Below are positions 11,391 to 59,313 of a stretch of DNA of 64,000 nt, piece after piece. Position 1 is the stretch's first letter. Every line of letters begins with the position of its first letter. Made by a program: the position numbers and the translations under genes. The DNA comes from an uncultured Chloroflexia bacterium. GTDB lineage: Bacteria; Chloroflexota; Limnocylindria; Limnocylindrales; CSP1-4. The DNA is taken from contig CAWBGT010000001.1 in the NCBI GenBank assembly GCA_963788375.1, positions 7,467-71,466 of the forward strand, written 5' to 3'. A model generated the notes under the pieces. It saw only the letters and a list, made by a program, of their open reading frames with translations, made no database searches and was not told where the DNA came from.

Positions 11391-11704
11391 GTGTGTATCC
11401 CTCTCGCGCCGTCGGTTGGGTGAGGGACGGATCGCCGCCGACTGGCCTCTTCCGGTCTGCCATGACCGCACGACGTGGAGCCCGGCTGAGTCGCGCTCGG
11501 CCTGTGGCCGGGCGGCGCGCGTCCTGCTGGCCTCATCGAGGGACGGACCGCCGATTCCCCTGGCTGGGCAATCGACGGCGGCGGACCGGCCGGCGCGCAC
11601 GGGCTCGCTCCATGCATCCTTGCGCGTCGGGCCCTGGTTGGCCACGAGTCGAAAGTCCCACGACGAATGGCGAACTTGCGGGGTGCCTGCTCGGGTGCGG
11701 TCCG

Positions 11705-45619: not shown

Positions 45620-45684
45620 TCGATCCCCACCGGGGCGTCGCCGGTCCATTTGACGTGCCGGTGGCGTCCCCGGATGCTCGTCCC

Positions 45685-46431
45685 ATGTCACGCATCCTCG
45701 TCGTGGACGACGAGCCCCACATCCTCGAGGTCGTCCGGGCCTATCTCGCCCGGGACGGCCACGACGTGCTCACGACGGCTGACGGGACAACCGCCCTCGA
45801 GCTTGCCCTGGGAGCGTCGCCCGACCTGGTGGTCCTGGACGTCATGCTGCCCGGCCGGTCCGGCTTCGACGTCCTGCGCGAGCTCCGCCGCTCGGGGAGC
45901 GCCGTGCCGGTGATCCTGCTCACGGCCCGGGACGACGTGATCGATCGGGTGGCCGGCCTCGAGATCGGGGCCGACGACTACGTCACCAAGCCATTCGAGC
46001 CGCGCGAGCTCGTCGCACGCGTCAGCGCGGTCCTGCGGCGGACCCAGGCGGTCGGCGACGCAAGCTCAGGCTCTGCGGCCGCGGGAGACCGCGCCGCCAC
46101 CCCGGCCGCACCCGCGTGGGACCCTCCGAAGGTCACGACCTGGTTCGACCTCGAGATCGATCCTGCCGCCCGCGACGTCCGGCGGGACGCCGCCGCGTTG
46201 CCACTCACCCGCGCCGAGTTCGATCTGCTCCTCGCGTTCGCCGGGCGCCCGGGCGTCGCCCTCACCCGCGAACAGCTCGGCGAGCACGTCTTCGGCGAGG
46301 CGTTCGACGCCTTCGACCGGACGATCGACAGCCACGTCAAGAACCTCCGCCACAAGCTGGGCAGCCGGCCGGGCGGCGAGGCCTACATCGAGACGGTCCG
46401 CGGTGTTGGCTATCGCGGAGCTCGGCCGTGA
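45685..46431 (+). CDS. OmpR-family response regulator
   Basis: Receiver ILVVDDEP and VVLDVMLPGRSG; winged-helix C-terminus TVRGVGYR. Confidence 0.9.
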   Translation: MSRILVVDDEPHILEVVRAYLARDGHDVLTTADGTTALELALGASPDLVVLDVMLPGRSGFDVLRELRRSGSAVPVILLTARDDVIDRVAGLEIGADDYVTKPFEPRELVARVSAVLRRTQAVGDASSGSAAAGDRAATPAAPAWDPPKVTTWFDLEIDPAARDVRRDAAALPLTRAEFDLLLAFAGRPGVALTREQLGEHVFGEAFDAFDRTIDSHVKNLRHKLGSRPGGEAYIETVRGVGYRGARP

Positions 46432-47573
46432 GCCTGCGGGCGCGCCTGGCGTTCGTGATGGCACTCGTGGCGTTGCTGACCGCGGCGGCGGTTGCCGTCG
46501 CAGCCCCGACCATCGTTGGCCGGGGGTTTGCCGCCGCGCTCGGTGATGACTCCGCCATCCGCCCAGGCGGTCCGGGCCCCGGCGGCGGCATGGGCAACGG
46601 GGCTGGCGCGGGAGCAGGCCTGGGCCAGGGCGTCATGCACTGGCAACAGGTCCAGCAGGACACGATCGTCACCCTGATCGCGGTCGCGGTTCTCGCGGCC
46701 GTGGTGGCCTCGCTCGTGGGCCTGTTCCTGGCCACGCGCACGGTGCGGCCGCTCGGACGGCTCGAGGCGGCTGCCGCGGCCGTGGCCAGGGGCGATCTCG
46801 AAGCCAGGTCAGGGTTGGCGGACCGGACCGACGAGATCGGGTCACTGGCGCGCTCGTTCGACGGGATGGCGGCGGGCCTCCAGGCGACAGAGGTCTCGCG
46901 CCGCCGCTTCTTCGCCGACGCAGCCCACGAGCTCAAGACCCCGATCGCCGTCATCGACGCCACGACGTCGGCGGTCATCGATCGCGTGTACACGCACGAC
47001 GACCGTCACCTCGAGACCATCAGGGAGCAGGCGCGGCTCCTCGGCCGCATCGTCGACGATCTGCGCACCGTGTCCCTGGCCGAGGCCGGGTCGCTGCCGT
47101 TGCGGATCGAGGCCGTCCCGCTGGCACCAGTGCTGGATGCGGTAGCCCGCGGCGCGGCGGCGCGGTCGTCACCTGGGGGACCGCGCGTCGAGGCCATCGA
47201 CCCTGGCGCGCTCGCTGTCCGCGCCGACTCCGACCGGTTGCGCCAGGTCCTCAACGCGTTGACCGACAACGCCCTGCGCCACGCCGCGGCCGGCGGATGG
47301 GTGCGGATCTCGGCGACCGGCGTGCCGCCGGCCCCGCCAGGCCAGGTCCGGATCACCGTCGTCGACTCCGGCCCCGGGATCGCCCCCAACGACCTGCCGC
47401 ATGTCTTCGATCGCTTCTACCAGGCCGACCCATCCCGCGACCGATCGACCGGGACGAGCGGTCTCGGCCTCGCGATCGTGCGCGCGATCGTCGAGGCGCT
47501 CCACGGTTCGGTGACGGCTGCCAACGAACCCGGGGCCGGGGCCCGATTCGACGTGGATCTGCCCTCAGCCTGA
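46428..47573 (+). CDS. sensor histidine kinase (HAMP + HisKA + HATPase_c)
   Basis: GTG start overlapping the response-regulator stop (GTGA). Two TM segments, H-box FFADAAHELKTPIA, and N/G boxes DNALRHA and DSGPGI...GLGLAIV. Confidence 0.85.
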   Translation: MSLRARLAFVMALVALLTAAAVAVAAPTIVGRGFAAALGDDSAIRPGGPGPGGGMGNGAGAGAGLGQGVMHWQQVQQDTIVTLIAVAVLAAVVASLVGLFLATRTVRPLGRLEAAAAAVARGDLEARSGLADRTDEIGSLARSFDGMAAGLQATEVSRRRFFADAAHELKTPIAVIDATTSAVIDRVYTHDDRHLETIREQARLLGRIVDDLRTVSLAEAGSLPLRIEAVPLAPVLDAVARGAAARSSPGGPRVEAIDPGALAVRADSDRLRQVLNALTDNALRHAAAGGWVRISATGVPPAPPGQVRITVVDSGPGIAPNDLPHVFDRFYQADPSRDRSTGTSGLGLAIVRAIVEALHGSVTAANEPGAGARFDVDLPSA

Positions 47574-47775
47574 CGGGTCATCGGGCGCCGCGCCGGCCGT
47601 TCGGCCTCCCCGCGGGCACACCCGGCCAGGTCCCCGCCGCGCCGCCCCCGACGCCCCGTTGCCCACGGTTCCTCGTGCCTGCGTTCACGTATCGCCTGCC
47701 CCGGCGCCGAGTGGCCCCCGCCCGGCGCGACGCGCCCGCCGACGGCCCGGGCCGCCCGTCCCGTGACGCTGTGAC

Positions 47776-47832
47776 CAACGGCTCACACCTTATATATGTA
47801 GATAGCATATAGATAGGCAGGACATCTACTTC
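47776..47832. promoter_or_regulatory. AT-rich imperfect palindrome upstream of arsR (candidate operator/promoter)
   Basis: The segment ccttatatatgtagatagcatatagataggcag is strongly AT-rich in a genome of about 72 percent GC. Half-sites TATATGTAGATA and TATAGATAGG; lies 20-70 bp upstream of the GTG start. Confidence 0.3.
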
Positions 47833-47850
47833 CACGCAGCAGGAGGCGAC

Positions 47851-48234
47851 GTGTACGACCCCGTTGGTGAGATCGATCTGATCCAGATCGGCCTCATCCG
47901 GGCGCTCGCCGGGACGCACCGCCTGCGGATCGTCCACCTCCTGGGCCGCGGATCCCTCGAGGTGCGCGAGCTCGCCCGCGAGCTCGACCTTCCCCAGGCC
48001 ACGGTCTCCCAGAACCTGGCTGCCATGCGGGCGGCAGGTCTCGTGGATGCGACGCGAGAGGGCCGCGCGGTCCGCTACCGCCTCGCCGATCCGGAGATTC
48101 TCGCCGCCTGCGACCTCATGCGGAACGTGATCGTCCGCCGCCTTTCAGCGCTCGGCAACCTCGCCGCCGCAGCCGGTGACGGGCAGCCGGCGATCTCCAG
48201 GAACCAACTTCCGGCACAGGTGACCAATCGATGA
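47851..48234 (+). CDS. ArsR/SmtB-family transcriptional regulator
   Basis: GTG start with AGGAGG RBS. HTH segment LRIVHLLGRGSLEVRELARELDLPQATVSQNLAAMRAAGLV. Confidence 0.8.
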   Translation: MYDPVGEIDLIQIGLIRALAGTHRLRIVHLLGRGSLEVRELARELDLPQATVSQNLAAMRAAGLVDATREGRAVRYRLADPEILAACDLMRNVIVRRLSALGNLAAAAGDGQPAISRNQLPAQVTNR

Positions 48235-48638
48235 GCGACAGCCTCAATCTCGTCATGTTCTCCGGCACGGCCGACAAGCTGCACGCAGCGGCGACGCTGG
48301 CCGCCGGGGCGGCCGCGATGGACCGGCCGGTGAACGTCCTGCTCCAGTACTGGGCGCTGGACGCGTTCCGGTCTGATCGGCTGGACGTGAACCACGGCCT
48401 CGCCTGGGACGCCATGGCCGACGGCGCGAGCCGCCCGGTCAAGGGCACGGCGGCCATTCCCTGGCTGGACACCTTCCGGATGGCCAAGGAGCTCGGATCG
48501 GTCTCGATCCTGGCCTGCTCCGGGTCGCTGGATGTCCTGGGCATCGACGTCACCGCCCTCGATCCGATCGTCGATTCGTCGGGCGGGATCGCCGTCTTCC
48601 TGCTGGCCGCCGAAGACGGCCAGCTCGTCTTCATCTAG
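48231..48638 (+). CDS. DsrE/DsrF-like sulfur-relay family protein (lacks obvious active-site Cys context)
   Basis: ATGA overlap with arsR. 135 aa with a DsrE-like fold; single Cys in LACSGSLD. Confidence 0.6.
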   Translation: MSDSLNLVMFSGTADKLHAAATLAAGAAAMDRPVNVLLQYWALDAFRSDRLDVNHGLAWDAMADGASRPVKGTAAIPWLDTFRMAKELGSVSILACSGSLDVLGIDVTALDPIVDSSGGIAVFLLAAEDGQLVFI

Positions 48639-48666
48639 CCGCCTCAAGGAGGGCACGGAGAACCCG

Positions 48667-49035
48667 ATGGCCGATCACGAGAAGCTCGTATTCATGGTGA
48701 CGCACGGGCCCGACCATCCCGAGCACGCCACCCTTCCCTTCGTGATGGCCGCCGCCGCGCTGGCATCGGATGTCGCCGTGACGATGGGCTTTCAGGCCGA
48801 TGCCGTGAGGCTCATGACGACCGGGGTGGCCGAAACGGTCGCCGCACCCGGCTTCCCGCCCCTGGCCAAGCTCGTCGCCGACGTCCGCGAGCTGGGCGGC
48901 CTGCTCCTCGTCTGCAACCCGTGCCTCAAGAGTCGGGACATCGCGCCCGACGACCTCGTCGCCGGTGCCGAGGTGGTCGCCGCAGGCCGCTTCGTCGCCG
49001 AGATCACGTCCGCCACCAACTCTCTCGTGTACTAG
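48667..49035 (+). CDS. DsrE-family sulfurtransferase-like protein
   Basis: AAGGAGG RBS. VFMVTHGPDHPEHATLPFVMAAAA and LLVCNPCLKSR, with Cys in the position of the DsrE sulfur-carrier cysteine. Confidence 0.7.
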   Translation: MADHEKLVFMVTHGPDHPEHATLPFVMAAAALASDVAVTMGFQADAVRLMTTGVAETVAAPGFPPLAKLVADVRELGGLLLVCNPCLKSRDIAPDDLVAGAEVVAAGRFVAEITSATNSLVY

Positions 49036-49047
49036 GAGACCGCTGAA

Positions 49048-49308
49048 ATGACCGCAACCGTTGCCGAGCTCGAGGCCATCGAGGCCGCCGAGATCATCGA
49101 TGCCCGCGGCGCAGCCTGCCCGGGCCCGCTGCTCGAGGCCAAGAAGGGCATGTCCGGGGTCCCCGTGGGCTCCGTGATCGAGATCTGGTCCACCGACCCG
49201 GGCACCAAGAGCGACATCTCGGCCTGGTCCGGCAAGGTCGGCCACGACTTCATGGGCACGCTCGAGGCCGACGGCTACGACCGCGTGTTCGTCACCCGCC
49301 GCAAGTAG
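49048..49308 (+). CDS. tusA: TusA-like sulfur carrier protein
   Basis: IDARGAACPGPLLEAKKGM carries the CPxP motif of the TusA/SirA family; 86 aa. Confidence 0.8.
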   Translation: MTATVAELEAIEAAEIIDARGAACPGPLLEAKKGMSGVPVGSVIEIWSTDPGTKSDISAWSGKVGHDFMGTLEADGYDRVFVTRRK

Positions 49309-49386
49309 CACCCGATCGCTGATGTCGTCTCGACCCGCTTCAACCGGCGTCGCGGCGACACCCCGGCCTGCAGGAGCACCGCGTCC

Positions 49387-49836
49387 ATGACCGCACCCAT
49401 CGCGACCGAACCGCATGCACCGGGCGAATCCTTCGTCCCGCGGATCCTCGTGTTCTCCACGAACAACATCTCCGATCCCGGCATCGACCTCGCCGGCAGC
49501 GCCCACATGCACTACTCGCCGGGCGTGAACGTCATCGGCCTGCCGTGCACAAGCGGCATCCGGCCGTCATGGATCCTGCACGCGCTGGAGTCCGGCTTCG
49601 ACGGGGTGTTCGTGGCATCCGACGGGGACGAGTGCGCCTACCTGCCAGACTGCGCCAAGCGCTCCAGCCGGATCATGGCGGAGGCGCAGAAGCAGCTCAA
49701 GGAGAAGGGCCTCACGGCCAACCGGCTGCGCATGGCCGCGATCTGCTCGGTCTGCTCGGAGCCGTTCACCAAGCATGTCCAGGGGTTCTCGGAAGCGTTG
49801 CGCGCGATGGGCCCGGCGAAGGCGGAATCACGATGA
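49387..49836 (+). CDS. MvhD/FlpD-like hydrogenase iron-sulfur (2Fe-2S) subunit homolog
   Basis: ILVFSTNN...VIGLPCTSGIRPSWILHALESGFDGVFVASDGDECAYLPDC matches the MvhD family. ATGA overlap with the next gene. Confidence 0.7.
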   Translation: MTAPIATEPHAPGESFVPRILVFSTNNISDPGIDLAGSAHMHYSPGVNVIGLPCTSGIRPSWILHALESGFDGVFVASDGDECAYLPDCAKRSSRIMAEAQKQLKEKGLTANRLRMAAICSVCSEPFTKHVQGFSEALRAMGPAKAESR

Positions 49837-52601
49837 CCGACAGCTGCGCCACCCGCGACGAGGCCCCGGCCGCCACGGACTACGACGTCCTGGTCGTGGG
49901 TTCGGGCATCGGCGGCATGGAGTCCGCCCTCAAGCTCGGCGACATGGGCTACAAGGTCCTGCTGGTCGAGAAGGAGGCCAGTGTCGGCGGCAAGATGATC
50001 CTGCTGTCGAAGGTCTTCCCGACGCTCGACTGCGCGTCCTGCATCTCGACGCCCAAGATGGCGTCGACGATCCACCACCCCAACATCACGGCCATGACCT
50101 ACGGCCGGGTGGACCAGATCCGGACCGCGGCCGACGGCACCTTCAAGGCCAAGGTCACCCAGAAGGCCCGATTCGTCGACATCGACTCCTGCACCGGCTG
50201 CCAGAAGTGCGAGACCGCGTGCACGGTCGCGGTGCCGGACCAGTTCAACGCGGATCTGGTGGCCCGCCGGGCGGCCCACATCACGTTCCCCCAGGCCGTG
50301 CCCAAGAAGGCGGTCATCGACCGCGCCGGAAGCTCGCCCTGCTCGTTCGCATGCCCGGCCGGGATCCAGGCCCACGGCTACGTCAGCCTGATCCGCAGCG
50401 GCCTCGACGAGGAGGCCTACCGGCTGGTGCTGGACGCCACCCCGTTCGTGGGCACGCTCGGGCGCGCCTGCTACGCCCCGTGCGAGGTCGACTGCACCCG
50501 CGGCTCGCTGGAGGGCACGCTCCCGATCCGGCGCCTCAAGCGCTACGCCTCCGACGTGCACGACGCCAGCGGCGCGGACAACGGCATCGAGCGGCCGCAG
50601 GCCAACGGCCGGCGTGTTGCCATCGTGGGCTCCGGGCCCACCGGGCTCACCGCCGCCTGGCAGCTGGGCCGCCTGGGCTACGCGGTCAAGGTGTTCGAGG
50701 CGGCCCCGGTCGCCGGCGGCTTCCTGCGCCTGGGCATCCCGTCCTACCGGCTGCCCGAGGCCGTGGTGGAGCGCGACATCGAGAACGTCACCGCGCTCGG
50801 CGTGGAGATCGTGACCGGCTCGCCGGTCGCCGACCCCGCGGCGCTCAAGGACAACGGCTTCGACGCCGTGCTGGTCGCCATCGGCACCCATCGCTCGACC
50901 TCCCTGGGCGTCCCGGGCGAGGACCGGCTGGGCGTCCTGGGCGGAACCGACTTCCTTCGCCGGGTGAAGCTCGATGAGGCACCCGCGCTCGCAGGCAAGC
51001 GCGTGATCGTCGTGGGTGGCGGCAACGTGGCGATGGACGCCGCGCGCACGGCCCGGCGCCTGGGCGCGGAGTCGGTCACCGTGGCCTACCGCCGGAGCCG
51101 CGACGAGATGCCGGCCCACCACGTCGAAGCCGCGGATGCGGAGAGGGAGGGCGTCGCCTTCCGGCTCCTGGTCGCCCCGGCAGAGGTCCTGGGCGATGCG
51201 AACGGGGCGGTCTCCGGCCTGCGCTGCCAGGAGATGCGCCTGGGCGCGCCGGACGCGTCCGGCCGCCGCTCGGCCGAGCCCGTCCCGGGCTCCGACACGA
51301 CCATCCCGGCCGACGTGATCATTGCCGCTATCGGCATGCGCCCGGACACGAGCGCGTTCGGCGACCGGGTCGCGGTCCATCCCAACGGCCGGCTGGTCAG
51401 CGACAAGGCCTCCTGCCAGACCGCGACGCCGCACGTGTTCGCCGCCGGCGACGCGGTGCACGGACCCACCGACATCACGCGGGCGGTGGGGGAGGGCCGC
51501 AAGGCCGCCCACCAGATCGACGCCTGGCTCTCGGGCCGCGAGTTCGATGACTGGGACACGCGCCTCCCCGTCGTGGACAAGGAGCAGGTGCTGGCCCGCC
51601 AGAAGGCATACACGGTCTCGGCGCCCACGCCCGAGGGCTCCGAACTCGTGGCGGCCCCCGCGGACTTCCGGGAGGTGGAGGCCGGGCTCACGCAGCAGGA
51701 GGCCCGCCGGGCCGCCGGCCGGTGCATCGACTGCGCGGTGTGCTCCGAGTGCAACGAGTGCGTCTCGGCCTGTCCCGTCGATGGCTGCATCGACCTGCGG
51801 GCCCGCGACGAGGAGAGGGAGATCAAGGTCGGCGCCGTCGTGGTCTCGACCGGCTTCAAGCTGTTCCCCGCGGACCTCAAGCCCGAGTACGGGTACGGCC
51901 TGTACAAGAACGTCATCACCGGCATGCAGATGGACCGGCTCCTCGCTCCGACGCGGCCGTTCAACACGATCCTGCGCCCGGGCGACGGCAAGGTCCCCGA
52001 GCGGATCGCGTACATCCTGTGCACCGGGTCCCGCGACGAGACCGTGGGCAATCCCCTCTGCTCCCGGTTCTGCTGCATGTACTCCATCAAGCAGAACCAG
52101 CTCCTGATGGGCGCCCTGCCCCTGGCCGACATCACCGTCCACTACATGGACATCCGCGCGCCGGGCAAACGCTACGACGAGTTCTACGAGCAGGCGAAGG
52201 GCATGGGCGCGACCTACGTCAAGGGCCGGGTTGCGGACGTGACCGAGACGCCCGACGGGGACCTGATCCTCAAGTACGAGGACATCGAGAACGGTGGCGC
52301 CATCACCGAGGCCGAGTACGACCTGGTGGTGCTGGCGGTGGGCGTGCTGCCCAATCGCGACGCCGAGCGGCTGTTCGAGGTGGGCGAGCTCGCCCTGGAT
52401 GAATGGCAGTATGTGGCCGAGCCGGAGGAAGACGTGAACCCGGGCCAGACGAACATCCCCGGGGTCTACGTGGCCGGTGCCGCGTCGGGTGCCAAGGACA
52501 TCGCGGACTCCATCCTCCACGCAGGCGCCGCCGTGGCCCAGGTCGCGGCCCACCTCGAGCGGACGAAGCCCGTGCCGCAGATCGAGCTGGTGCCGGCATG
52601 A
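49833..52601 (+). CDS. HdrA-like flavoprotein with inserted GltD/NfnB-like NAD(P)H-binding Fe-S domain (HdrL-type fusion)
   Basis: 922 aa. N-terminal FAD motif DVLVVGSGIGGMESA; 4Fe-4S motif CTGCQKCETAC; inserted GltD-like block with CSFACPAGIQ, ACYAPCEVDC, VAIVGSGPTGLTAA and VIVVGGGNVAMD; ferredoxin CIDCAVCSECNECVSACP; HdrA motifs CTGSRDE...CSRFCCMYS and GVYVAGAASG. Confidence 0.8.
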   Translation: MTDSCATRDEAPAATDYDVLVVGSGIGGMESALKLGDMGYKVLLVEKEASVGGKMILLSKVFPTLDCASCISTPKMASTIHHPNITAMTYGRVDQIRTAADGTFKAKVTQKARFVDIDSCTGCQKCETACTVAVPDQFNADLVARRAAHITFPQAVPKKAVIDRAGSSPCSFACPAGIQAHGYVSLIRSGLDEEAYRLVLDATPFVGTLGRACYAPCEVDCTRGSLEGTLPIRRLKRYASDVHDASGADNGIERPQANGRRVAIVGSGPTGLTAAWQLGRLGYAVKVFEAAPVAGGFLRLGIPSYRLPEAVVERDIENVTALGVEIVTGSPVADPAALKDNGFDAVLVAIGTHRSTSLGVPGEDRLGVLGGTDFLRRVKLDEAPALAGKRVIVVGGGNVAMDAARTARRLGAESVTVAYRRSRDEMPAHHVEAADAEREGVAFRLLVAPAEVLGDANGAVSGLRCQEMRLGAPDASGRRSAEPVPGSDTTIPADVIIAAIGMRPDTSAFGDRVAVHPNGRLVSDKASCQTATPHVFAAGDAVHGPTDITRAVGEGRKAAHQIDAWLSGREFDDWDTRLPVVDKEQVLARQKAYTVSAPTPEGSELVAAPADFREVEAGLTQQEARRAAGRCIDCAVCSECNECVSACPVDGCIDLRARDEEREIKVGAVVVSTGFKLFPADLKPEYGYGLYKNVITGMQMDRLLAPTRPFNTILRPGDGKVPERIAYILCTGSRDETVGNPLCSRFCCMYSIKQNQLLMGALPLADITVHYMDIRAPGKRYDEFYEQAKGMGATYVKGRVADVTETPDGDLILKYEDIENGGAITEAEYDLVVLAVGVLPNRDAERLFEVGELALDEWQYVAEPEEDVNPGQTNIPGVYVAGAASGAKDIADSILHAGAAVAQVAAHLERTKPVPQIELVPA

Positions 52602-54376
52602 GCGAGCAGACCCAGGACCTTGCCATGGGCCAGCCAGCCCCCGAGGCCGAGTCCGGCCGCCGGATCGGCGTGTATGTCTGCCACTGCGGCGGCAACATCT
52701 CCGACTACGTCGACGTCGAGAAGGTCATCGACGACATCAAGGACAACGGTGACGTCGTGGTCGCCAAGACCGCGATGTTCACCTGCTCGGACGCCACCCA
52801 GTCCGAGATCGTCGCGGACATCCAGGCCAACGAGCTCGATGGCCTCGTGGTGGCCTCCTGCTCGCCCAAGCTGCACACCTACACCTTCCGGGGCGTGGCC
52901 CAGCGGGCCGGCCTCAACCCGTACGAGTACACCCAGGTCAACATCCGGGAGCAGTGCTCCTGGGTCCACACGGACGACCACGACGGAGCGACCGCCAAGG
53001 CCACCGCGCTCGTGGAGGCCGGCATCGGACGGACGCGCCACACGGTGCCCCTGGAGCCGATGGTCGTGGAGACCCTCCCCCACACGCTCATCATCGGCGG
53101 CGGGATCGCCGGTCTCCGGGCGGCCGTCGGGCTGGCCGACATCGGCCTCAAGGTGACGCTCGTCGAGCGTGAGCTGGAGCTGGGTGGACGCGTCGGCCGG
53201 CTGGGGGCGATGTACCCCCACAACCGGAAGGGCTCGGAGCTGATCGCCCACCTGGTGGCCGAGGTGCGCAAGCGCCCGGCGATCACGGTCCTCACGGGCG
53301 CGGAGCTGGTCGCCAAGGCCGGCAGCTTTGGCAACTACCGGGTGAGCCTCCAGATCGGCGGGGAGGGTGCCGGCACCATTGAGGTGGCCGTGGGCTCCAT
53401 CGTCGTGGCCACGGGCTTCGACGACTACCGCCCCGAGGAGGGCGAGCTGGGCTACGGCATCGAAGGTGTCGTCACCCTGACCGAGTTCAAGGAGGTCGTG
53501 GATGGCTCAACCGACGGGCTTGCCTGGAACGGCCGGCCGGTTCGCAGCGTGGCCTACGTGTACTGCGTCGGCAGCCGCAACACGGCCGGATGCGCCAACG
53601 CGTACTGCTCGCGGTACTGCTGCGCCGCCACCGTCCAGACGGCCGTCGAGGTCTCGGGCCTCGACCCGTCCATCCGCCAGTTCCACCTGTACCGGGACAT
53701 GCGGACGTACGGCAAGTTCGAGCCGCTGTACACGGAGGCGCGCAAGTCCGGCTCGGTCTTCCTCAAGTTCGACAACGAGGAGCCGCCTGCGGTCGCGAAG
53801 GGCCCCGACGGAACGCTGACGGTCACCGTCCGCGACGTGCTCACCGAGCGCATCGAGATGGCGATCCCGGTGGACCTCGTGGTCCTGGTCACGGCCATGG
53901 TCCCGCGGGCCAACCAGGGCCTCGTGGACGTCCTCAAGCTCCCGGCCGGCAGCGATGGGTTCTTCAACGAGATCCATCCCAAGCTGCGACCCGTGGAGAC
54001 GGTGGTGGATGGGGTGCTGATCGCCGGCGCCTGCCAGGGTCCCAAGACGTCGGGCGAGAGCGTCATGTCCGGCCTGGCCGCCGTGACCCAGAGCGCCGCG
54101 GTCCTCAAGAAGGGTTACACGGAGCTCGACCCGCTGGTCGCGATCGTGGAGCCGGAGGCATGCACCGCCTGCGGCGACTGCCTCACAGCGTGCCCCTATG
54201 ACGCGATCTCCATGGCCGAGGAGGCTGACCGGCACTTCGCGGTCATCAGCCCCACCGGCTGCAAGGGCTGCGGCGGCTGCGTGCCGATCTGTCCGGAGAA
54301 CGCGATCGACCTGCTCGGCTATACCGACGCCCAGATCACGTCGATGATCGAAAGCCTCGTGGAGGTTCCTGTCTGA
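52598..54376 (+). CDS. hdrA: heterodisulfide reductase subunit A-like flavoprotein
   Basis: 592 aa. N-terminal cluster IGVYVCHCGGNI; FAD motif LIIGGGIAGLRAA; VYCVGSRN...CSRYCC; C-terminal 2x[4Fe-4S] CTACGDCLTACP and CKGCGGCVPICP. ATGA overlap upstream, TGATG overlap downstream. Confidence 0.85.
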   Translation: MSEQTQDLAMGQPAPEAESGRRIGVYVCHCGGNISDYVDVEKVIDDIKDNGDVVVAKTAMFTCSDATQSEIVADIQANELDGLVVASCSPKLHTYTFRGVAQRAGLNPYEYTQVNIREQCSWVHTDDHDGATAKATALVEAGIGRTRHTVPLEPMVVETLPHTLIIGGGIAGLRAAVGLADIGLKVTLVERELELGGRVGRLGAMYPHNRKGSELIAHLVAEVRKRPAITVLTGAELVAKAGSFGNYRVSLQIGGEGAGTIEVAVGSIVVATGFDDYRPEEGELGYGIEGVVTLTEFKEVVDGSTDGLAWNGRPVRSVAYVYCVGSRNTAGCANAYCSRYCCAATVQTAVEVSGLDPSIRQFHLYRDMRTYGKFEPLYTEARKSGSVFLKFDNEEPPAVAKGPDGTLTVTVRDVLTERIEMAIPVDLVVLVTAMVPRANQGLVDVLKLPAGSDGFFNEIHPKLRPVETVVDGVLIAGACQGPKTSGESVMSGLAAVTQSAAVLKKGYTELDPLVAIVEPEACTACGDCLTACPYDAISMAEEADRHFAVISPTGCKGCGGCVPICPENAIDLLGYTDAQITSMIESLVEVPV

Positions 54377-54621
54377 TGCCTGACCTGTCCCGGGACCCGC
54401 GCGAGGTCATGCGGGAGGAGCCCGTGATGCGGCCCCGCATCCTCGCCGCCCTCCAGGCCGGTCCCCTCACCGTTCCCGAGATTGCCACGGCCGTTGGCTC
54501 GCCCACTCACGAGGTCCTGTTCTGGGTCATGGGCATGCGCCGCTACGGGTGGCTCGAGGAGATCAAGGGCAACGCCCCCGACGGCTACTTCCAGTACCAG
54601 CCCACCGGGCGGGAGTCCTGA
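54376..54621 (+). CDS. small winged-helix-like protein embedded in the hdr operon
   Basis: 81-aa ORF overlapping both neighbours by 1 bp; ILAALQAGPLTVPEIATAVGSPTHEVLFWVMGMRRYGWLEE is wHTH-like. Confidence 0.4.
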   Translation: MPDLSRDPREVMREEPVMRPRILAALQAGPLTVPEIATAVGSPTHEVLFWVMGMRRYGWLEEIKGNAPDGYFQYQPTGRES

Positions 54622-55844
54622 TGACCGCCACCACCGCTCCTGCCGACGCCGCGCCGGCCGTCGCCACGCCCGCCCGCCTGGACCTGGGCCTCTACCCGGA
54701 TCTCCAGCGGTTTGGCGCCACCGACATCAGCGCCTGCTTCTCGTGCGGCACCTGCTCCGCGACCTGCCCCATGTCCCAGACCGACGGAACCTTCCCCAGG
54801 CGGATCATCCGCTATGCCCAGCTGGGCATGAAGGACGCGCTGCTCGGGTCCAAGGAGCTGTGGGCGTGCTACCAGTGTGGTGAGTGTGCCGAGACGTGTC
54901 CCACCCAGGCCGATCCGTCCGAGTTCATGGCGGCGACCCGACGCTATGCCATCGCCTCCTACGACCGGACGCGGCTGGCCCGGACCCTCTACACGAACCC
55001 GGTCATGGCGACCGTGATCGCCGTCCTCGTGGCCGTGCTGTTCGCCGCCTTCATGTACTCGGCCCGCGGCCCGATGAGCACAGAGACCCTGGCGATCTTC
55101 GAGTGGATCCCGTCGGAGCTGATCCACGACACCGGGATCGTCGTGATGATCGTGGTCGTGCTCGCGGGCGTGCTGGGCATCGCGACCATGGCCCGGGATG
55201 TCGGACGCCGTGAGGGCGAGAGTCCGCGGAGCGTGTTCGGGTCCAGGGCCGCACTCGGCCGGACCGGGCGTGCATTGTGGAGCGCCATCGGCCGCGAGTC
55301 GCTGGGCCAGGTCCGGTTCCGCGAGGAGTGCGAGGCGGACGACGTCGCCATGGCCGTCCCCTGGTACCGCCGCCGCTGGCTGGTCCACGCGCTCGTCGTC
55401 TGGGGCTTCCTCGGCCTGCTGGCGGCAACCGGGCTGGACTACGGCCTGGCGCTGCTCGGCATCAAGGAGACCGGGGCGCCGGTGCCGATCTGGTACCCGG
55501 TCAGGCTGCTGGGCACCGTGGCCGGGGCCGTCCTCGTCTATGGGGCCACCGTCCTGATCATCGACCGCCGCAACGCCGCCAGCCGCAGCGTCAGGACCTC
55601 GACGACGGCCGACTGGATGCTCCTGGGCCTGCTGTGGGTGACGGCCGTCACCGGTTTCGCCATCGAGCTCGCGCTGTACCTGCCGAGCGCCCCCGCCTGG
55701 GGCTACTGGCTGTTCCTCGTCCACGTCGCCGTCGCCATGGAGCTCGTGCTCCTCGCGCCGTTCACCAAGCTCGCCCACGCGGTCTACCGGCCGGTGGCGA
55801 TGTTCTTCGTCGCTCTATCGCGCCAGCCAACGGAAGGAGCCTGA
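54621..55844 (+). CDS. HdrC-like 2x[4Fe-4S] ferredoxin domain fused to a NarI/HdrE-like polytopic membrane (putative b-type cytochrome) domain
   Basis: CFSCGTCSATCP and CYQCGECAETCP about 45 aa apart, then 5-6 TM helices containing conserved His (WLVHALVVWGF, LFLVHVAVAMEL, KLAHAVY). Confidence 0.7.
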   Translation: MTATTAPADAAPAVATPARLDLGLYPDLQRFGATDISACFSCGTCSATCPMSQTDGTFPRRIIRYAQLGMKDALLGSKELWACYQCGECAETCPTQADPSEFMAATRRYAIASYDRTRLARTLYTNPVMATVIAVLVAVLFAAFMYSARGPMSTETLAIFEWIPSELIHDTGIVVMIVVVLAGVLGIATMARDVGRREGESPRSVFGSRAALGRTGRALWSAIGRESLGQVRFREECEADDVAMAVPWYRRRWLVHALVVWGFLGLLAATGLDYGLALLGIKETGAPVPIWYPVRLLGTVAGAVLVYGATVLIIDRRNAASRSVRTSTTADWMLLGLLWVTAVTGFAIELALYLPSAPAWGYWLFLVHVAVAMELVLLAPFTKLAHAVYRPVAMFFVALSRQPTEGA

Positions 55845-55847
55845 GCC

Positions 55848-56339
55848 ATGACCAGCCCCACGCTGCCGCAGACGGCCCATGTCCACCACGAGCGCCTGCT
55901 CGAGCGGGTGAACCGCATCCCCGACATCGCGGATGCGCTGCTCACGACCTCGCCCGACGTTGCCCAGGCCAGCCTCCGCGACCTGCGCGGGTTCCTCGAG
56001 GGGACGCTGCTCCCGCACATGGAGGCCGCCGAGCGGGCCCTCTACCCGGAGCTGGAGCGCATGTTCCAGAACCGGCATTCCATGGCACCCATGCGCCGCG
56101 AGCACGCCCGCATCCGGGAGCTGATCACGGAGTTCGGTGCGCTCGTGGACGAGGGTGAGGGTCACGTGACCCTGGCCCGCACCCTCTCGATCCGGCGCGT
56201 GCTGTTCCACCTGTACGCGCTGCTCAAGGTGCACCTGGCCGAGGAGGATGCCTACCTCCGGATCATCGAGCACGGCGTCACCGACGACGTCGCGGACGCG
56301 GTCAAGGCGGCGCTCGAGCACCCGGTCGCGGGCGTCTAG
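55848..56339 (+). CDS. hemerythrin-like HHE cation-binding domain protein
   Basis: H/E residues spaced in a four-helix pattern (HHERL...HMEAAERALYPEL...MRREHARI...LKVHLAEED). Confidence 0.65.
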   Translation: MTSPTLPQTAHVHHERLLERVNRIPDIADALLTTSPDVAQASLRDLRGFLEGTLLPHMEAAERALYPELERMFQNRHSMAPMRREHARIRELITEFGALVDEGEGHVTLARTLSIRRVLFHLYALLKVHLAEEDAYLRIIEHGVTDDVADAVKAALEHPVAGV

Positions 56340-56354
56340 GGCTAGCATGGGCGG

Positions 56355-56879
56355 GTGAACATCCAGCACCCGGACCCGGAGACCGTCCCCGTCTCGTTGC
56401 GGGCGACCGGCGACGTCCACCATGCCCGGCTGATGCCCCACGTGGACCGGCTGCTGACGCTCGCCGAGATGGTCGGGCGGGTGGAATGCGCGGCCCTCCA
56501 TGCGCTCTACAACGACGAGTACGCATTCATCGCGGGCCAGCTGATCCCGCACCTGGAGGTGGTCGAAGCCACGCTCTATGACCGTCTCGAGACGCTCATG
56601 GGCCCCCGCCACACCATGGCCCCCATGCGCGAGGAGCACGACACCGTGCGCCGGCTCGTGGCTGAGCTGGGCACGTACCAGGTCCACGAGAACGAGTGCA
56701 CGTGGAACGAGATGGAGGGTCTCGCCCTCCGGCGATCGCTCTACCGGCTGCACGCCCTGCTCAAGGTCCACCTTGCGGAGGAGGAGCAGTACCTGGCGGT
56801 CCTGGACCGGAGCCTGACGGAGGACGAGAAGGAAGGGCTGGCGCGCGGCCTCGAACACGCCATGGCAGAGGGCGAGTAG
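56355..56879 (+). CDS. hemerythrin-like HHE cation-binding domain protein (paralog of 55848..56339)
   Basis: Aligns with the preceding gene: HLEVVEATLYDRLE...MREEHDTVRRL...LLKVHLAEEEQYL. Confidence 0.65.
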   Translation: MNIQHPDPETVPVSLRATGDVHHARLMPHVDRLLTLAEMVGRVECAALHALYNDEYAFIAGQLIPHLEVVEATLYDRLETLMGPRHTMAPMREEHDTVRRLVAELGTYQVHENECTWNEMEGLALRRSLYRLHALLKVHLAEEEQYLAVLDRSLTEDEKEGLARGLEHAMAEGE

Positions 56880-56902
56880 CCTCCCCAACGGAGGATTTCC
56901 GC

Positions 56903-57193
56903 ATGGCCCGCTACCGCGTCCTCGCATGGCGCGAGATCCCCACCCAGGTCCAGGCCACCGACGAGGCCGGCACCACCGCCAAGCGGACCATGGCCCGCTG
57001 GTTCATGCAGGAGATCAGCCGGATCACCATGCGCGAGGGCCTGGCTGGGACAGACGACTACCTTGAGGAGTTCGAGTGGTCGGCGTGGTCCGATCGCGAG
57101 GGCGGTGCCGACGACGTGGCCGACGCGGTTGTCGCGGAGCTCTCCGCCCGGTTCGGTCGACGCGTGGATGGCCACACCCTGCGCGAGGCCTGA
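56903..57193 (+). CDS. hypothetical small protein, last gene of hdr-like operon
   Basis: ATG at 56903 with GGAGGA RBS; 96 aa; no known motif. Confidence 0.4.
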   Translation: MARYRVLAWREIPTQVQATDEAGTTAKRTMARWFMQEISRITMREGLAGTDDYLEEFEWSAWSDREGGADDVADAVVAELSARFGRRVDGHTLREA

Positions 57194-57219
57194 GGCGGCC
57201 CGTGAACCTCGCCGCTCCG

Positions 57220-57555
57220 TCAGCCGGCTTCGCGGAGCAGGGTGAGGATCATGACGAGCGGCGTGGTCGCGCGGATCGCATGGCGCATGCCGGGCGGCAT
57301 GGCGATCCAGGCGCCCGCAGCGGCCGACATCGCCTCTTCGCCAAGCACCAGGTCGGCCGTTCCCTCCAGGATCTGGATCTGGGCGGCGAAGGCCGAAGTG
57401 TGCTCGCTCAGCTCCTCGCCCGCGTCGAAGGCGAAGATCACCAGCGACACCCGTTCGTCCTCGTACAGAGTTCGGCTGAGGATCCCGCCGGACGGGATCT
57501 GGACCTCGGATCGGAGATCCCCGACGTACCCGTAGTCAGTCACGTGACGCTCCAT
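57220..57555 (-). CDS. cupin-domain protein
   Basis: 111 aa. EHTSAFAAQIQILEGTADLVLGEE...AGAWIAMPPGMRHAIRA is cupin-like. Confidence 0.6.
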   Translation of the reverse strand: MERHVTDYGYVGDLRSEVQIPSGGILSRTLYEDERVSLVIFAFDAGEELSEHTSAFAAQIQILEGTADLVLGEEAMSAAAGAWIAMPPGMRHAIRATTPLVMILTLLREAG

Positions 57556-57716
57556 TCGACGCGGTGGTGGTGGGTTGGTCCCGGGTTCCGGCCCCTGCTG
57601 GCGGGTTCTCGCTTCCGGTGCCGCCGATCACACTCGCAATCCGGCGTCTCGTACAGCACAATGGGGGCTCACATCGGAGGGAAGTCTTCTCCGTGTCGAG
57701 GGTTAGGGTGAGGTAG

Positions 57717-58076
57717 ATGAACTTTACTGAATGGATCATGGCGATGATCGTCTTCTTCTTCTGGGTGATGGCGATCTGGATCTTCATCTCCATCTTCATG
57801 GACATCTTCCGCCGGAACGACATGAAGGGCGGCATGAAGGCGCTGTGGATCCTGGTGATCTTTATCATCCCGTTCCTGGGCTGCCTGATCTACATCATCG
57901 CCCGGCCCAAGGTCACGGCCCAGGACGTCCAGATGATGACGCAGGCCGAGGCCGCCGCCGGTGCGGCGTCGCAGGTGTCCACCGCGGACGAGCTCGCGAA
58001 GCTCGGCCAGCTGAAGGACTCCGGCGCCATCACCGTCCCCGAGTACGAGGCCCTCAAGGCCAAGCTGATGGCCTGA
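57717..58076 (+). CDS. PLDc_N (cardiolipin synthase N-terminal-like) membrane domain + SHOCT domain protein
   Basis: Two TM helices (IMAMIVFFFWVMAIWIFISIF, LWILVIFIIPFLGCLIYIIARP), then DELAKLGQLKDSGAITVPEYEALKAKL, which is a SHOCT motif. Lower GC than the surroundings. Confidence 0.75.
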   Translation: MNFTEWIMAMIVFFFWVMAIWIFISIFMDIFRRNDMKGGMKALWILVIFIIPFLGCLIYIIARPKVTAQDVQMMTQAEAAAGAASQVSTADELAKLGQLKDSGAITVPEYEALKAKLMA

Positions 58077-58104
58077 TCGCGAGCCCATCGCGATCCGCGA
58101 GGCC

Positions 58105-58140
58105 GGTCCCCGACGTGGGGGCCGGCCTTCTTCGTTGGGC
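58105..58140. terminator. putative intrinsic terminator hairpin followed by T-rich tract
   Basis: aggccggtcccc-gacgtg-ggggccggcct followed by tcttcgtt; lies between convergent genes. Confidence 0.4.
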
Positions 58141-58160
58141 CCAGTGCGTCCCGGTACGGG

Positions 58161-59066
58161 TCAGGGGTGGCGCTGTCCTGGCACGCGCCCCTCGGCCGCC
58201 GCGACCAGCTGGGCCAGGTGCGATGCCTCGTGGCGGGCGAAGTACGCCGCCTGGGACAGCACCGTCACGCGACCCCACTCCGGGTGGCAACCAGCTCGGC
58301 CCCAGTCCGCGTCGTCGAGGGCGGCGAGGCGATCGACGGCGGCATGCCGGAGCTCCCGGATCCTGTGGGCGAGGGCCGTGGCCGCCTCTCCGGTCGCCGT
58401 CGTCCCCTCGTCGGACGCGGGTGTGTCGGCCCAGACGGCCGCCGCAGCGAGATCGGGCTCCGTCTCGGTGAGGAGGCGGTGGATCCGCATGGCCAGGAGC
58501 TCCTCGGTGAACAGCAAGTGCTCCAGGGTCTGGGTGGCGGACCAGGCGCCGGCGACCGGCGCACGGCGGAGCTCGGCATCCGCACGATCCGCGAGTGCCG
58601 CGTCGAGGTGACGCGGACCGGCGGCGAGGGCGGCGAGGATCGCGCCACGGTCGGCAGGCTCCAGGTACCAGACGGGCAGCTCCTCGTGGAAGGAGATCGC
58701 CGGAGCCTCGCACGTCGGGCAGGCGGGTGGCACGGCATCGCCGACGAAGACGTCGCCGCACACACGACAGACGCGTGCCCGCGGAGCGTCGTCGAGCGAG
58801 ATCGTCCGGCCCGCCCTGACGGCCGGCCCAACCTCCCGCAGGTAGGGGATGGTCGCGGGCGGGAGGTCTCCACCAAGATCCTCGACGAGCGACTCGACGG
58901 CCGCAGCCGCCGCTTCGCCGCCGGCCGGTGACTCCTCCTCCGCGAAGCGGACCAGCTCGCGCTGGAGCGCGACCCGTACCAGCTTCGCGCCGTTGTAGGC
59001 GCCCTCGCGCTCCAGTCCCCGGGCCACCGCGGCCAGCCGGCCGATCCGTTCCAGCCGTGCGTCCAT
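58161..59066 (-). CDS. rubredoxin-like zinc-ribbon + DinB_2 (DinB/YfiT-like) domain protein
   Basis: Internal start MDARLERIG at codon 133 of ORF 58161..59462, with AGGAGG RBS. CRVCGDVF...CPTCEAP zinc ribbon. The C-terminal half has the DinB-like four-helix pattern with His (WSATQTLEHLLFTEELLAMRIHRLL...ARHEASHLAQL). Confidence 0.55.
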   Translation of the reverse strand: MDARLERIGRLAAVARGLEREGAYNGAKLVRVALQRELVRFAEEESPAGGEAAAAAVESLVEDLGGDLPPATIPYLREVGPAVRAGRTISLDDAPRARVCRVCGDVFVGDAVPPACPTCEAPAISFHEELPVWYLEPADRGAILAALAAGPRHLDAALADRADAELRRAPVAGAWSATQTLEHLLFTEELLAMRIHRLLTETEPDLAAAAVWADTPASDEGTTATGEAATALAHRIRELRHAAVDRLAALDDADWGRAGCHPEWGRVTVLSQAAYFARHEASHLAQLVAAAEGRVPGQRHP

Positions 59067-59313
59067 CCCATGCCTCCTGCCCGCACCTGATCGCCTCGCC
59101 GGCGCCCGCCCTGTGGTTGTTCCGGTCACCGCCCAGTGTGCGCCACCGGCAGGCCTCCCACCCGCCGCGCCGCGAGTTGCCGGGCCGATCCTCGCCACGG
59201 TTGGGCCGGCCTGCAGGAGAACGCCTGGTTCACGGCTTGTGATTCGCGACGCTCGCGCCATGACGGCAGCGCGGAGTAATGTTGAGGCTGCGTCCGGCCC
59301 GGGAGGATCCGCC

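Follow-up and report, generated by a model that had tools for sequence, protein, structure and literature searches.

A split HdrL-type flavoprotein encoded with TusA, DsrE-like carriers and a QmoC-like membrane subunit in an uncultured Chloroflexia bacterium

A 64,000-nucleotide (nt) stretch of contig CAWBGT010000001.1 (assembly GCA_963788375.1) from an uncultured Chloroflexia bacterium of the Limnocylindrales, here called the window, encodes two HdrA-type flavoproteins in consecutive genes. We label the first, a protein of 922 amino acids (aa), HdrAL, and the product of the next gene HdrA2. Judged by domain layout, HdrAL is the half of a split HdrL that binds nicotinamide adenine dinucleotide phosphate (NADP(H)), and HdrA2 is the other half. 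With its relatives, the pair belongs to an apparently undescribed clade of split HdrL systems that are linked to tusA, dsrE and arsR, have a winged-helix subunit of their own and carry either HdrCB or a QmoC-like anchor. Gene models, a domain map, Cys and His ligand sets, complementary domain loss, natural fusions, the clade-specific tusA link and a swap between QmoC and HdrCB make up the evidence.

Architecture of HdrAL and its partner HdrA2

The two proteins and the landmarks within HdrAL are as follows (FAD, flavin adenine dinucleotide).

49833 to 52601, + strand: HdrAL, 922 aa; thioredoxin-reductase-like FAD core of HdrA with an NfnB/GltD-like module in the inserted ferredoxin domain
50325 to 51725, + strand: inserted NfnB/GltD-like block, aa 165–631, with PDB alignments to StnC-type chains and NfnB
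51723 to 51776, + strand: six-Cys seam C631-x2-C634-x2-C637-x2-C640-x2-C643-x3-C647, invariant or near-invariant
52598 to 54376, + strand: HdrA2, 592 aa; N-terminal cluster domain, FAD core with CSRYCC cluster, C-terminal 2x[4Fe-4S] domain

Pfam places Fer4_20 at aa 167–246 of HdrAL (1.4e-14) and Pyr_redox_2 at aa 261–555 (1.4e-44). NCBIfam assigns aa 143–665 to GltD/NfnB-type families (PRK12771, 486 bits) and aa 630–909 to HdrA families, the latter scoring 310–448 bits against cut-offs of 1100–1400. When aligned to PDB chains, aa 19–164 correspond to residues 146–290 of HdrA (5ODC) and aa 632–910 to residues 288–567, aa 167–643 align with the NfnB-like part of the StnC-type chains 8OH5_C and 9BOV_A, and aa 166–574 with T. 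maritima NfnB (4YLF_B). On these alignments, HdrA is interrupted at residue ~290 by an NfnB-type block of about 467 aa, which separates the two Cys motifs of the inserted ferredoxin domain. A first-pass annotation of this DNA had described an HdrL-type HdrA that carries a GltD/NfnB-like NAD(P)H module as an insertion, and the family searches and PDB alignments bear this out; the middle region does come out as GltD/NfnB-like, with PRK12771 as the match.

The HdrA part retains an FAD motif of the HdrA type (GxGxxG, G23–G28), the core-cluster cysteines C743-SRF-C747-C748 and C730, the GVYVAGA motif (aa 877–883), and C67 and C70, the equivalents of HdrA Cys194 and Cys197. Its first ferredoxin motif, CxxCxxCxxxC (C120/123/126/130), is parted by the 467-aa insert from the second (C637/640/643/647), which aligns with HdrA C293–C303. 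The alignment spans HdrA residues 146–567, and both the N-terminal cluster domain and the C-terminal 2x[4Fe-4S] ferredoxin domain are absent. HdrAL had been credited with all HdrA hallmarks, which holds for its FAD, CxxCxxCxxxC, CSRFCC and GVYVAGA motifs but not for these two terminal domains.

Within the insert, two Rossmann motifs, for FAD at G266–G271 and for NADP(H) at G395–A400, align to 4YLF_B and 5JCA_L, and Y419-R420-R421 corresponds to the YRR motif of NfnB (Y310-R311-R312). In NfnB this motif binds the 2'-phosphate, and in DsrL-2 it is a mark of NADP(H) specificity (PMC7596348), so the predicted cofactor of the insert is likely NADP(H), not NAD(H). The two clusters of NfnB are ligated by C39, C42, C47 and C100 and by C51, C90, C96 and E117 (PMC7596348). 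HdrAL C170, C174, C213, C217 and C221 match NfnB C47, C51, C90, C96 and C100, five of the seven Cys ligands, and the first ~42 residues of NfnB, with the ligands Cys39 and Cys42, are absent N-terminal to the insert. The GltD block was earlier called complete; both Rossmann motifs are indeed there, but this N-terminal piece is missing. C631 and C634 (in 'EARRAAGRCIDC') are invariant, lie immediately N-terminal to the second ferredoxin motif and probably replace Cys39 and Cys42. Across homologues of 37–93% identity, the ligand cysteines show no or almost no variation, C637 and C747 being kept at 90% or more. Since the six cysteines of the seam are contiguous in sequence, the distal NfnB cluster would neighbour an HdrA ferredoxin cluster.

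HdrA2 matches the NCBIfam family HdrA2 at 470 bits, its aa 16–252 aligning with HdrA 7–243 and its aa 260–591 with HdrA 324–656. It supplies exactly the two terminal domains that HdrAL is missing, and has neither the inserted ferredoxin domain nor Cys194/197, 'FPTLDCxxC' being replaced by 'YPHNRKGSE'. In methanogens, the cluster in the N-terminal domain of one HdrA is completed by Cys197 from the partner HdrA (PMC9012536). The Cys197 equivalent occurs only in HdrAL and the N-terminal domain only in HdrA2, a distribution that favours an obligate heterodimer resembling QmoA/QmoB. Fusions elsewhere lend the pairing independent support: in ten loci and in protein P0124, a single open reading frame (ORF) of about 1490–1530 aa encodes an HdrAL-like part followed by an HdrA2-like part (37% identity over 572 aa). 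These fused ORFs are the classical large HdrL.

The hdrAL gene is confirmed as real. Its ORF (49833–52601, + strand) runs unbroken through 922 codons from an ATG at 49833 to a TGA at 52599–52601, and the product is an exact match to a called gene product in public records. The possibility that it is really two genes separated by an overlooked stop or frameshift can be set aside, as neither occurs within the 922 codons. Homologues number 6790 at E≤0.001; the best 120 are all full-length and at least 77% identical, and those with named sources come from Chloroflexota or 'Candidatus Limnocylindrales' metagenome-assembled genomes. Conservation at this level (at least 77%) extends over more than 100 sequence clusters, the named ones again Chloroflexota/Candidatus Limnocylindrales. 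The mvhD stop codon (49834–49836) shares the tetranucleotide ATGA with the hdrAL start at 49833, in agreement with the translational coupling proposed in the first-pass annotation, and the hdrAL to hdrA2 junction at 52598 is again an ATGA overlap. The G+C content of the window, about 72%, gives rise to long ORFs in many frames. An alternative GTG start at 49545 (1018-aa ORF) was rejected, because it crosses mvhD in a different frame and the 922-aa product is the called protein. A 971-aa antisense ORF covering nearly all of hdrAL (49638–52553, − strand) has no family match and was rejected as a high-GC artefact; a family search of the other antisense ORFs gave no matches.

The tusA-linked clade and its operon

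Fusions of the HdrA::NfnB type have been described before, as HdrL (2009) and in the ANME-1 HdrA-NfnB proteins (2022), and they are widespread, with dozens of 50%-identity cluster representatives aligning end to end. HdrL was described as an HdrA fused to a glutamate-synthase-small-subunit-like NAD(P)H module, adjoining mvhD (PMC2702500, 2009; PMC5947623). The HdrL of Desulfobacterium autotrophicum and Syntrophobacter fumaroxidans resembles HdrAL in its HdrA core, its GltD/NfnB-type module and the adjoining mvhD, and HdrAL aligns end to end with many HdrL-type proteins at 35–42% identity. Classical HdrL loci, however, encode a single chain of ~1500 aa with mvhD downstream and are without tusA, dsrE and p81 (a gene for an 81-aa protein described below). 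The window locus differs in its split into 922 and 592 aa, its upstream mvhD, its lack of selenocysteine and its QmoC-like partner. HdrA9, HdrA10 and HdrA11 of ANME-1 carry an NfnB-like insertion of ~500 aa in the inserted ferredoxin domain (PMC9012536, 2022). They share with HdrAL the insertion site, the kind of module and the idea of a heterodimeric, complementary HdrA paralogue, but they are archaeal, stand in a context of methane metabolism with HdrBC or Fdh neighbours, and have no reported TusA/DsrE link or quinone anchor.

Related loci were drawn from a one-genome-per-species scan across many phyla (80 HdrA::NfnB loci, numbered L) and from close relatives (three more), and were divided using tblastn and hidden Markov model (HMM) searches with the window proteins and a neighbour-joining tree. 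HdrAL identity is at least 49% within the clade, as against 35–42% in the other loci. A TusA HMM built from the clade finds tusA in all 17 clade loci with upstream sequence and in none of the 65 other HdrL-type loci, and the TusA Cys motif is kept in all clade members. Matches to dsrE (8 clade loci) and dsrE2 (10 clade loci) are likewise confined to the clade, and arsR lies upstream of tusA in many members. The p81 gene is found in every clade locus that reaches far enough and in no other locus, save for one weak match in L064. The clade is prominent in Limnocylindria, Chloroflexia, Gaiellales and Thermoleophilia and includes other Actinomycetota, Ignavibacteriales, Aminicenantes, Bacteroidales, Zixibacteria, Acidobacteriota, Deferrimicrobium and one Thermoplasmata archaeon. 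Sources of the remaining 65 loci include Desulfobacterota, Smithella, Bacillota and Anaerolineae, and mvhD lies downstream in most of them. A literature search that did not extend to subscription journals returned no description of a tusA-mvhD-hdrL-hdrA-p81 arrangement, only papers on HdrL, ANME, type II Qmo and sHdr. Together with the absence of tusA from the other loci, this agrees with the first-pass view that the DsrE/TusA context is unusual. That annotation was largely right about architecture and context, but it overlooked HdrA2 and hence the split HdrL, the QmoC-like membrane subunit and the absence of HdrB.

In the window, ten genes from arsR to a hemerythrin gene form an operon (47851–56339) in which neighbours overlap or stand at most 78 nt apart. 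Three junctions are stop/start overlaps of 4 nt (ATGA), two are overlaps of 1 nt (TGATG), and the gaps measure 3–78 nt; the arsR stop overlaps the start of the dsrE2B-like gene. The order is arsR, dsrE2B-like, dsrE3A-like, tusA, mvhD, hdrAL, hdrA2, p81, qmoC-like, hemerythrin, and the gene products are exact matches to called proteins. Besides hdrAL and hdrA2, the genes of the operon, and a second hemerythrin gene that follows it, are:

47851 to 48234, + strand: ArsR/SmtB-family regulator, 127 aa; Pfam HTH_5 6.6e-13, NCBIfam HTH_metalloreg 78.9 bits, weaker similarity to BigR
48231 to 48638, + strand: DsrE2B-like sulfurtransferase, 135 aa; Pfam DrsE_2 3.4e-10, full-length match to PDB 2QS7 (E 1.4e-14)
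48667 to 49035, + strand: DsrE3A-like sulfurtransferase, 122 aa, motif 'VCNPC'; Pfam DsrE 4.4e-13, PDB 3MC3 (DsrE3A) E 1.9e-5
49048 to 49308, + strand: TusA sulfur carrier, 86 aa, active-site motif DARGAAC-PGP; Pfam TusA 2.5e-17
49387 to 49836, + strand: MvhD-like [2Fe-2S] electron-transfer subunit, 149 aa; Pfam FlpD 5.5e-28, MvhD chains 8RVU_F (4e-15) and 5ODC_D (3e-14)
54376 to 54621, + strand: p81, Cys-free winged-helix protein, 81 aa; AlphaFold2 model with a predicted local distance difference test score (pLDDT) of 86.9, 696 homologues
54621 to 55844, + strand: QmoC-like membrane subunit, 407 aa; HdrC-like 2x[4Fe-4S] part and NarI/HdrE-like membrane domain, Pfam Fer4_8 and Nitrate_red_gam
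55848 to 56339, + strand: hemerythrin-like protein, 163 aa, 3 nt past the qmoC-like gene; Pfam Hemerythrin 3.6e-12
56355 to 56879, + strand: second hemerythrin-like protein, 174 aa; Pfam Hemerythrin 2.8e-5, just under the gathering score, operon membership uncertain

The structure matched by the DsrE2B-like protein, 2QS7, is DsrE2B of S. solfataricus (PMC4175335), and the window protein has a conserved Cys within 'ILACSGS'. In L005 and L008, a dsrE2-like gene stands between mvhD and hdrAL. The AlphaFold2 model of p81, built on a shallow alignment from the protein search, retrieves only generic winged helix-turn-helix folds of the ArsR/MarR type from the PDB with Foldseek (E~1e-3), and no DsrD-like match appeared in that search. 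In L014 (10682–12799), the p81 domain is fused to the C terminus of HdrA2 to give a 705-aa protein. This fusion argues that p81 is a subunit and not a free regulator, so p81 is probably part of the complex.

The QmoC-like protein has about six transmembrane helices and a set of invariant residues comprising eight Cys, H169, H256, H368 and H386, and C237. The last of these (in 'FREECEAD', within the product of 54621–55844) lies in a cytoplasmic loop outside both ferredoxin motifs. TcuB families of NCBIfam match the protein as well. Its N terminus is the only HdrC-like domain in the window operon, and no HdrB or CCG protein was found among the operon, flanking and other window genes put to Pfam, a set that does not cover every window ORF.

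What follows p81 varies across the clade. A QmoC-like gene occupies this position in the window, L001–L005, L008 and L014, and in L006, L007, L010, L015, L073 and L082 it is taken by an HdrC of ~100 aa and then an HdrB-like protein of ~322–343 aa. In L010 and L015, a DsrE gene comes directly after this pair. The HdrB-like proteins of the HdrCB-type relatives (L006 13315–14283, L073 12991–13959, L015 13072–14103, L007 and L082) have a single CCG motif in the pattern C-x~50-CCGGP-x~40-CPxC and a Cys-free N-terminal half, as against the two CCG domains of canonical HdrB. In the neighbour-joining tree, which carries no support values, loci of the QmoC type group in a subclade placed among lineages of the HdrCB type. 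By this topology, Chloroflexota and Actinomycetota may have exchanged a soluble module that reduces disulfide or persulfide for a quinone-linked one. The QmoC-like protein of L014, from a low-GC genome, is only 28% identical to that of the window, which may mean that this locus acquired its membrane anchor independently. Alternation between qmoABC and qmoAB-hdrCB is already known (PMC10504309).

A Qmo-like complex and the explanations weighed against it

Three branches leave the HdrA flavin in the methanogen enzyme (PMC9012536), and mapping the operon products onto this template gives a three-terminal, Qmo-like complex. We lean towards this composition and wiring; the subunit contacts and the electron path are inferred from the template. 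HdrAL and HdrA2 would form an obligate pseudo-dimer, like the HdrA homodimer or QmoA/QmoB. HdrAL would contribute an FAD core, the CSRFCC [4Fe-4S] cluster, C70 and the inserted ferredoxin domain with its NfnB-type module, which would itself hold two [4Fe-4S] clusters, FAD and an NADP(H) site, and C70 would complete the cluster in the N-terminal domain of HdrA2. Joined by MvhD, p81 and the QmoC-like di-haem subunit, the pair would make up a membrane-anchored complex with a predicted three FAD, about 11 [4Fe-4S], one [2Fe-2S] and two haem b, expressed under the ArsR-type regulator.

The first terminal would be NADP(H), placed on the branch that reduces ferredoxin in methanogen HdrA. There the low-potential exit runs from the N-domain cluster by way of the inserted ferredoxin domain and on to ferredoxin; here it would be extended by the clusters and FAD of the NfnB module. 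The proposal that the fusion lets NAD(P)H feed the HdrA flavin directly does not survive this mapping, because about four [4Fe-4S] clusters lie between the two, on the ferredoxin-exit branch (PMC9012536). The second terminal would be the quinone pool, reached through QmoC; its methanogen counterpart is the high-potential exit from the core cluster to HdrC/HdrB, and in deeper relatives it may be a thiol/disulfide or persulfide site on HdrC and the one-CCG HdrB. The third would lie on the MvhD side, for which neither a hydrogenase nor a formate dehydrogenase is encoded as partner.

We call the assembly Qmo-like because the operon has a QmoC-like subunit and no HdrB. QmoABC of sulfate reducers and green sulfur bacteria (PMC10504309) also combines two complementary HdrA-like flavoproteins with an MvhD module and a HdrC-cytochrome b fusion as anchor, and its relatives show the same alternation of QmoC and HdrCB; the likeness to QmoA and QmoB is one of domain layout. 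The window differs in that the QmoA counterpart has ferredoxin clusters and an NfnB module, MvhD is separate and not fused to QmoB, an extra 81-aa subunit is present and no aprAB was found nearby. Compared with MvhADG-HdrABC (5ODC, 8RVU), HdrAL and HdrA2 together hold all four HdrA domains and the Cys ligands including Cys197, and MvhD is homologous. In contrast to that complex, no hydrogenase or HdrB was found among the annotated window genes, the domains are spread over two polypeptides, the ferredoxin branch bears an NADP(H) module and there is a membrane anchor. Like the NfnB, GltD, DsrL and StnC proteins (4YLF, 5JCA, 8OH5), the insert has both Rossmann motifs and YRR, and five of the seven Cys ligands of the two NfnB clusters are in register, but it is not free-standing, has lost the N-terminal ~42 residues and lacks an NfnA or GltB partner.

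A sulfur species borne by TusA/DsrE is suggested as the partner on the MvhD side, or as the source of that partner, by the strict tusA linkage, the DsrE2B-like and DsrE3A-like carriers and the ArsR regulator. In Metallosphaera, DsrE/TusA carriers bind and transfer thiosulfonate (PMC4175335), TusA carries sulfane sulfur in other systems (PMC11094781), and the DsrE2B/DsrE3A/TusA trio accompanies sulfur-oxidising Hdr-like systems (PMC4175335, PMC11094781). That sulfur borne on TusA/DsrE is the redox substrate is a tentative proposal, plausible enough to entertain and open to real doubt. In such a reaction, NADP(H) and quinone/quinol would be coupled by flavin-based bifurcation or confurcation to sulfane sulfur or thiosulfonate on these carriers.

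The identity and direction of the sulfur reaction are speculative. By standard potentials, it would be thermodynamically sensible to bifurcate sulfur electrons to NADP+ and quinone, to bifurcate NADPH to quinone and a low-potential sulfur acceptor such as thiosulfonate, or to bifurcate NADPH to quinone and ferredoxin, the last being the model of the first-pass annotation. One specific and rather unlikely version holds that tusA-mvhD-hdrAL-hdrA2-p81 encodes an unrecognised flavin-based bifurcating sulfur oxidoreductase. Reduced sulfur borne on TusA/DsrE, at about −200 to −270 mV, would enter at the MvhD side and its electrons would be split between NADP+ (uphill, through the NfnB module) and menaquinone (downhill, through QmoC); in relatives that live anaerobically, the downhill electrons would go to a disulfide or persulfide at HdrCB instead. 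In a reverse variant, NADPH bifurcation would drive the reduction of TusA thiosulfonate (−402 mV) while reducing quinone.

Several observations weigh against the Qmo-like, sulfur-linked assembly. The window has no recognisable catalytic site for sulfur chemistry, with no HdrB/CCG protein, lipoate-binding protein, Dsr or Apr among its annotated genes. TusA is kept with HdrCB and with QmoC alike, so it is not simply the HdrB substrate, and its role could be regulatory or indirect. The DsrE3A-like gene is absent between dsrE2 and tusA in the closest relative (L001, 93% identical; 8743–9470 against 48231–49308 in the window), which makes this carrier dispensable. The QmoC-like protein matches NCBIfam qmoC (NF038018) over profile positions 2–360 of 360 but scores 211.6 bits, below the cut-off of 300, and the clade is a single group in a neighbour-joining tree without support values. 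Finally, the AlphaFold2 model of HdrAL, from a 27-sequence alignment, is poor (mean pLDDT 60, predicted template modelling score 0.43, Fe-S regions below 50), so cofactor geometry cannot be derived from it. On the question whether the inserted module places its FAD near the HdrA 4Fe-4S chain, the contiguous seam cysteines imply adjacent clusters, and this model adds nothing.

A soluble HdrL-type enzyme deserves the most attention as an alternative, although we consider it on the unlikely side. Here NAD(P)H, as the mid-potential donor, would reduce the HdrA flavin, with electrons passing to quinone via QmoC (a disulfide in relatives) and to ferredoxin, leaving via MvhD, and TusA/DsrE would be merely co-regulated. 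Every required cofactor motif is present, HdrL is generally assumed to take its electrons from NAD(P)H (PMC2702500, PMC5947623), and the thermodynamic logic follows that of EtfABCX, from NADH to ferredoxin and menaquinone (PMC10734219). The operon, however, has no ferredoxin gene, and the strict, clade-specific linkage to tusA, dsrE and arsR is left unexplained. Very improbable to us is a simple NADPH:quinone oxidoreductase that does not bifurcate, or a persulfide/polysulfide reductase that draws on NADPH and works at the NfnB-type flavin, with HdrA as wiring. The NfnB-like module with its YRR motif would suit such an enzyme, as would the fact that QmoC/TcuB-type anchors carry electrons from cytoplasmic flavoproteins to quinone. 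NfnI of P. furiosus, as 'sulfide dehydrogenase', reportedly showed polysulfide reductase activity in vitro (Ma and Adams 1994). For this purpose, two HdrA-type flavin cores, MvhD and ~11 clusters would be excessive, and the heterodimer of complementary domains repeats the full bifurcating HdrA layout.

The same low standing applies to cytoplasmic sulfur oxidation of the sHdr kind, in which TusA/DsrE would deliver sulfane sulfur and electrons would go to NADP+ and quinone. SoxR and sHdrR, the dedicated repressors of sHdr systems, are ArsR-type repressors. The operon shares with shdr clusters the trio of DsrE2B-like, DsrE3A-like and TusA carriers beside Hdr-like genes, along with a small repressor gene (PMC4175335, PMC11094781); relatives have HdrC and HdrB, and sHdr type II is known from Chloroflexota and Actinobacteriota. 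In contrast to sHdr-LbpA systems (PMC11094781, PMC4175335), the defining parts sHdrB1/B2 or B3, sHdrC1 and LbpA are absent, the HdrA proteins are of the methanogen type and match sHdrA (6TJR) only distantly, weakly and in part, HdrB-like proteins in relatives have just one CCG motif, and no oxygen-inserting or sulfite-forming enzyme is present. With no CCG-domain, LbpA or Etf gene in the operon, filing as sHdr was rejected. The least probable alternative is a type II Qmo complex serving an AprAB encoded elsewhere in the genome, in sulfite oxidation or sulfate reduction. A complementary HdrA pair like QmoA/QmoB, the MvhD module and the QmoC-like anchor speak for it, and 'Type II' Qmo, closer to HdrA, occurs in organisms with or without Apr/Dsr (PMC10504309). 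Against it, a non-exhaustive search of the L001–L003 gene lists, annotated clade flanks and the window genes submitted to Pfam found no aprAB or sat, known QmoA lacks an NfnB insertion, and the qmoC score is under the equivalog cut-off, for which reason filing as canonical Qmo was also rejected. The host lineages named so far (Limnocylindrales, Gaiellales, Thermoleophilia) are not known to contain Apr.

Genomic surroundings and biological significance

The window ArsR (47851–48234) has one Cys, in 'AACDLMR'; its homologues in the HdrCB-type loci L006, L010 and L015 add a Cys in the N-terminal region, giving the two-Cys pattern described for the repressor SoxR. A scan of 47300–57300 for promoters and terminators gave no promoter-like site and a single terminator-like site, where chance alone predicts 1.7. 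Genes for an OmpR-type response regulator and a HAMP/HisKA histidine kinase (45655–47573) immediately precede the operon; they are probably unrelated to the cluster because they are syntenic in L001 but not in L002. A hemerythrin gene following the cluster is kept only in Limnocylindria and Chloroflexia loci, and both hemerythrin-like proteins of the window may serve in O2 sensing or shield an Fe-S-rich complex in aerobes. Past them, two + strand ORFs (57076–57711, 211 aa, and 57731–58471, 246 aa) have no Pfam family, and different small genes occupy the matching position in L001. No other sulfur genes were found among the annotated genes elsewhere in the window. Two large proteins are probably surface-associated: one of 1016 aa with Big_9 and cadherin-like repeats (9546–12596, − strand) and one of 1300 aa with weak fn3/Ig matches (59113–63015, + strand).

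No model of flavin-based electron bifurcation is better known than the HdrA-type enzymes, which are usually discussed for strict anaerobes: methanogens, sulfate reducers and syntrophs, among others. Gaiellales, Thermoleophilia and Chloroflexia are common in oxic soils and lakes. In the clade described here, a complete HdrA layout is divided between two proteins, fitted with a predicted NADP(H) module, apparently plugged into the quinone pool and always linked to TusA. Specialists would find the fusion alone ordinary; the unexpected lead, open to direct testing, is the TusA-linked, quinone-coupled clade, and with p81 as clade marker and the strict tusA linkage the system is easily found and tested. 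If the bifurcating sulfur oxidoreductase were borne out, aerobic soil and freshwater Chloroflexota and Actinomycetota would obtain NADPH from sulfur compounds without reverse electron transport. If sulfur carriers are coupled to NADP(H) and quinone, this would be a new enzyme in the cytoplasmic sulfur cycle of abundant, poorly studied bacteria, and a new case of bifurcating modules being rewired, with QmoC in place of HdrCB, as quinone-based respiration was taken up.

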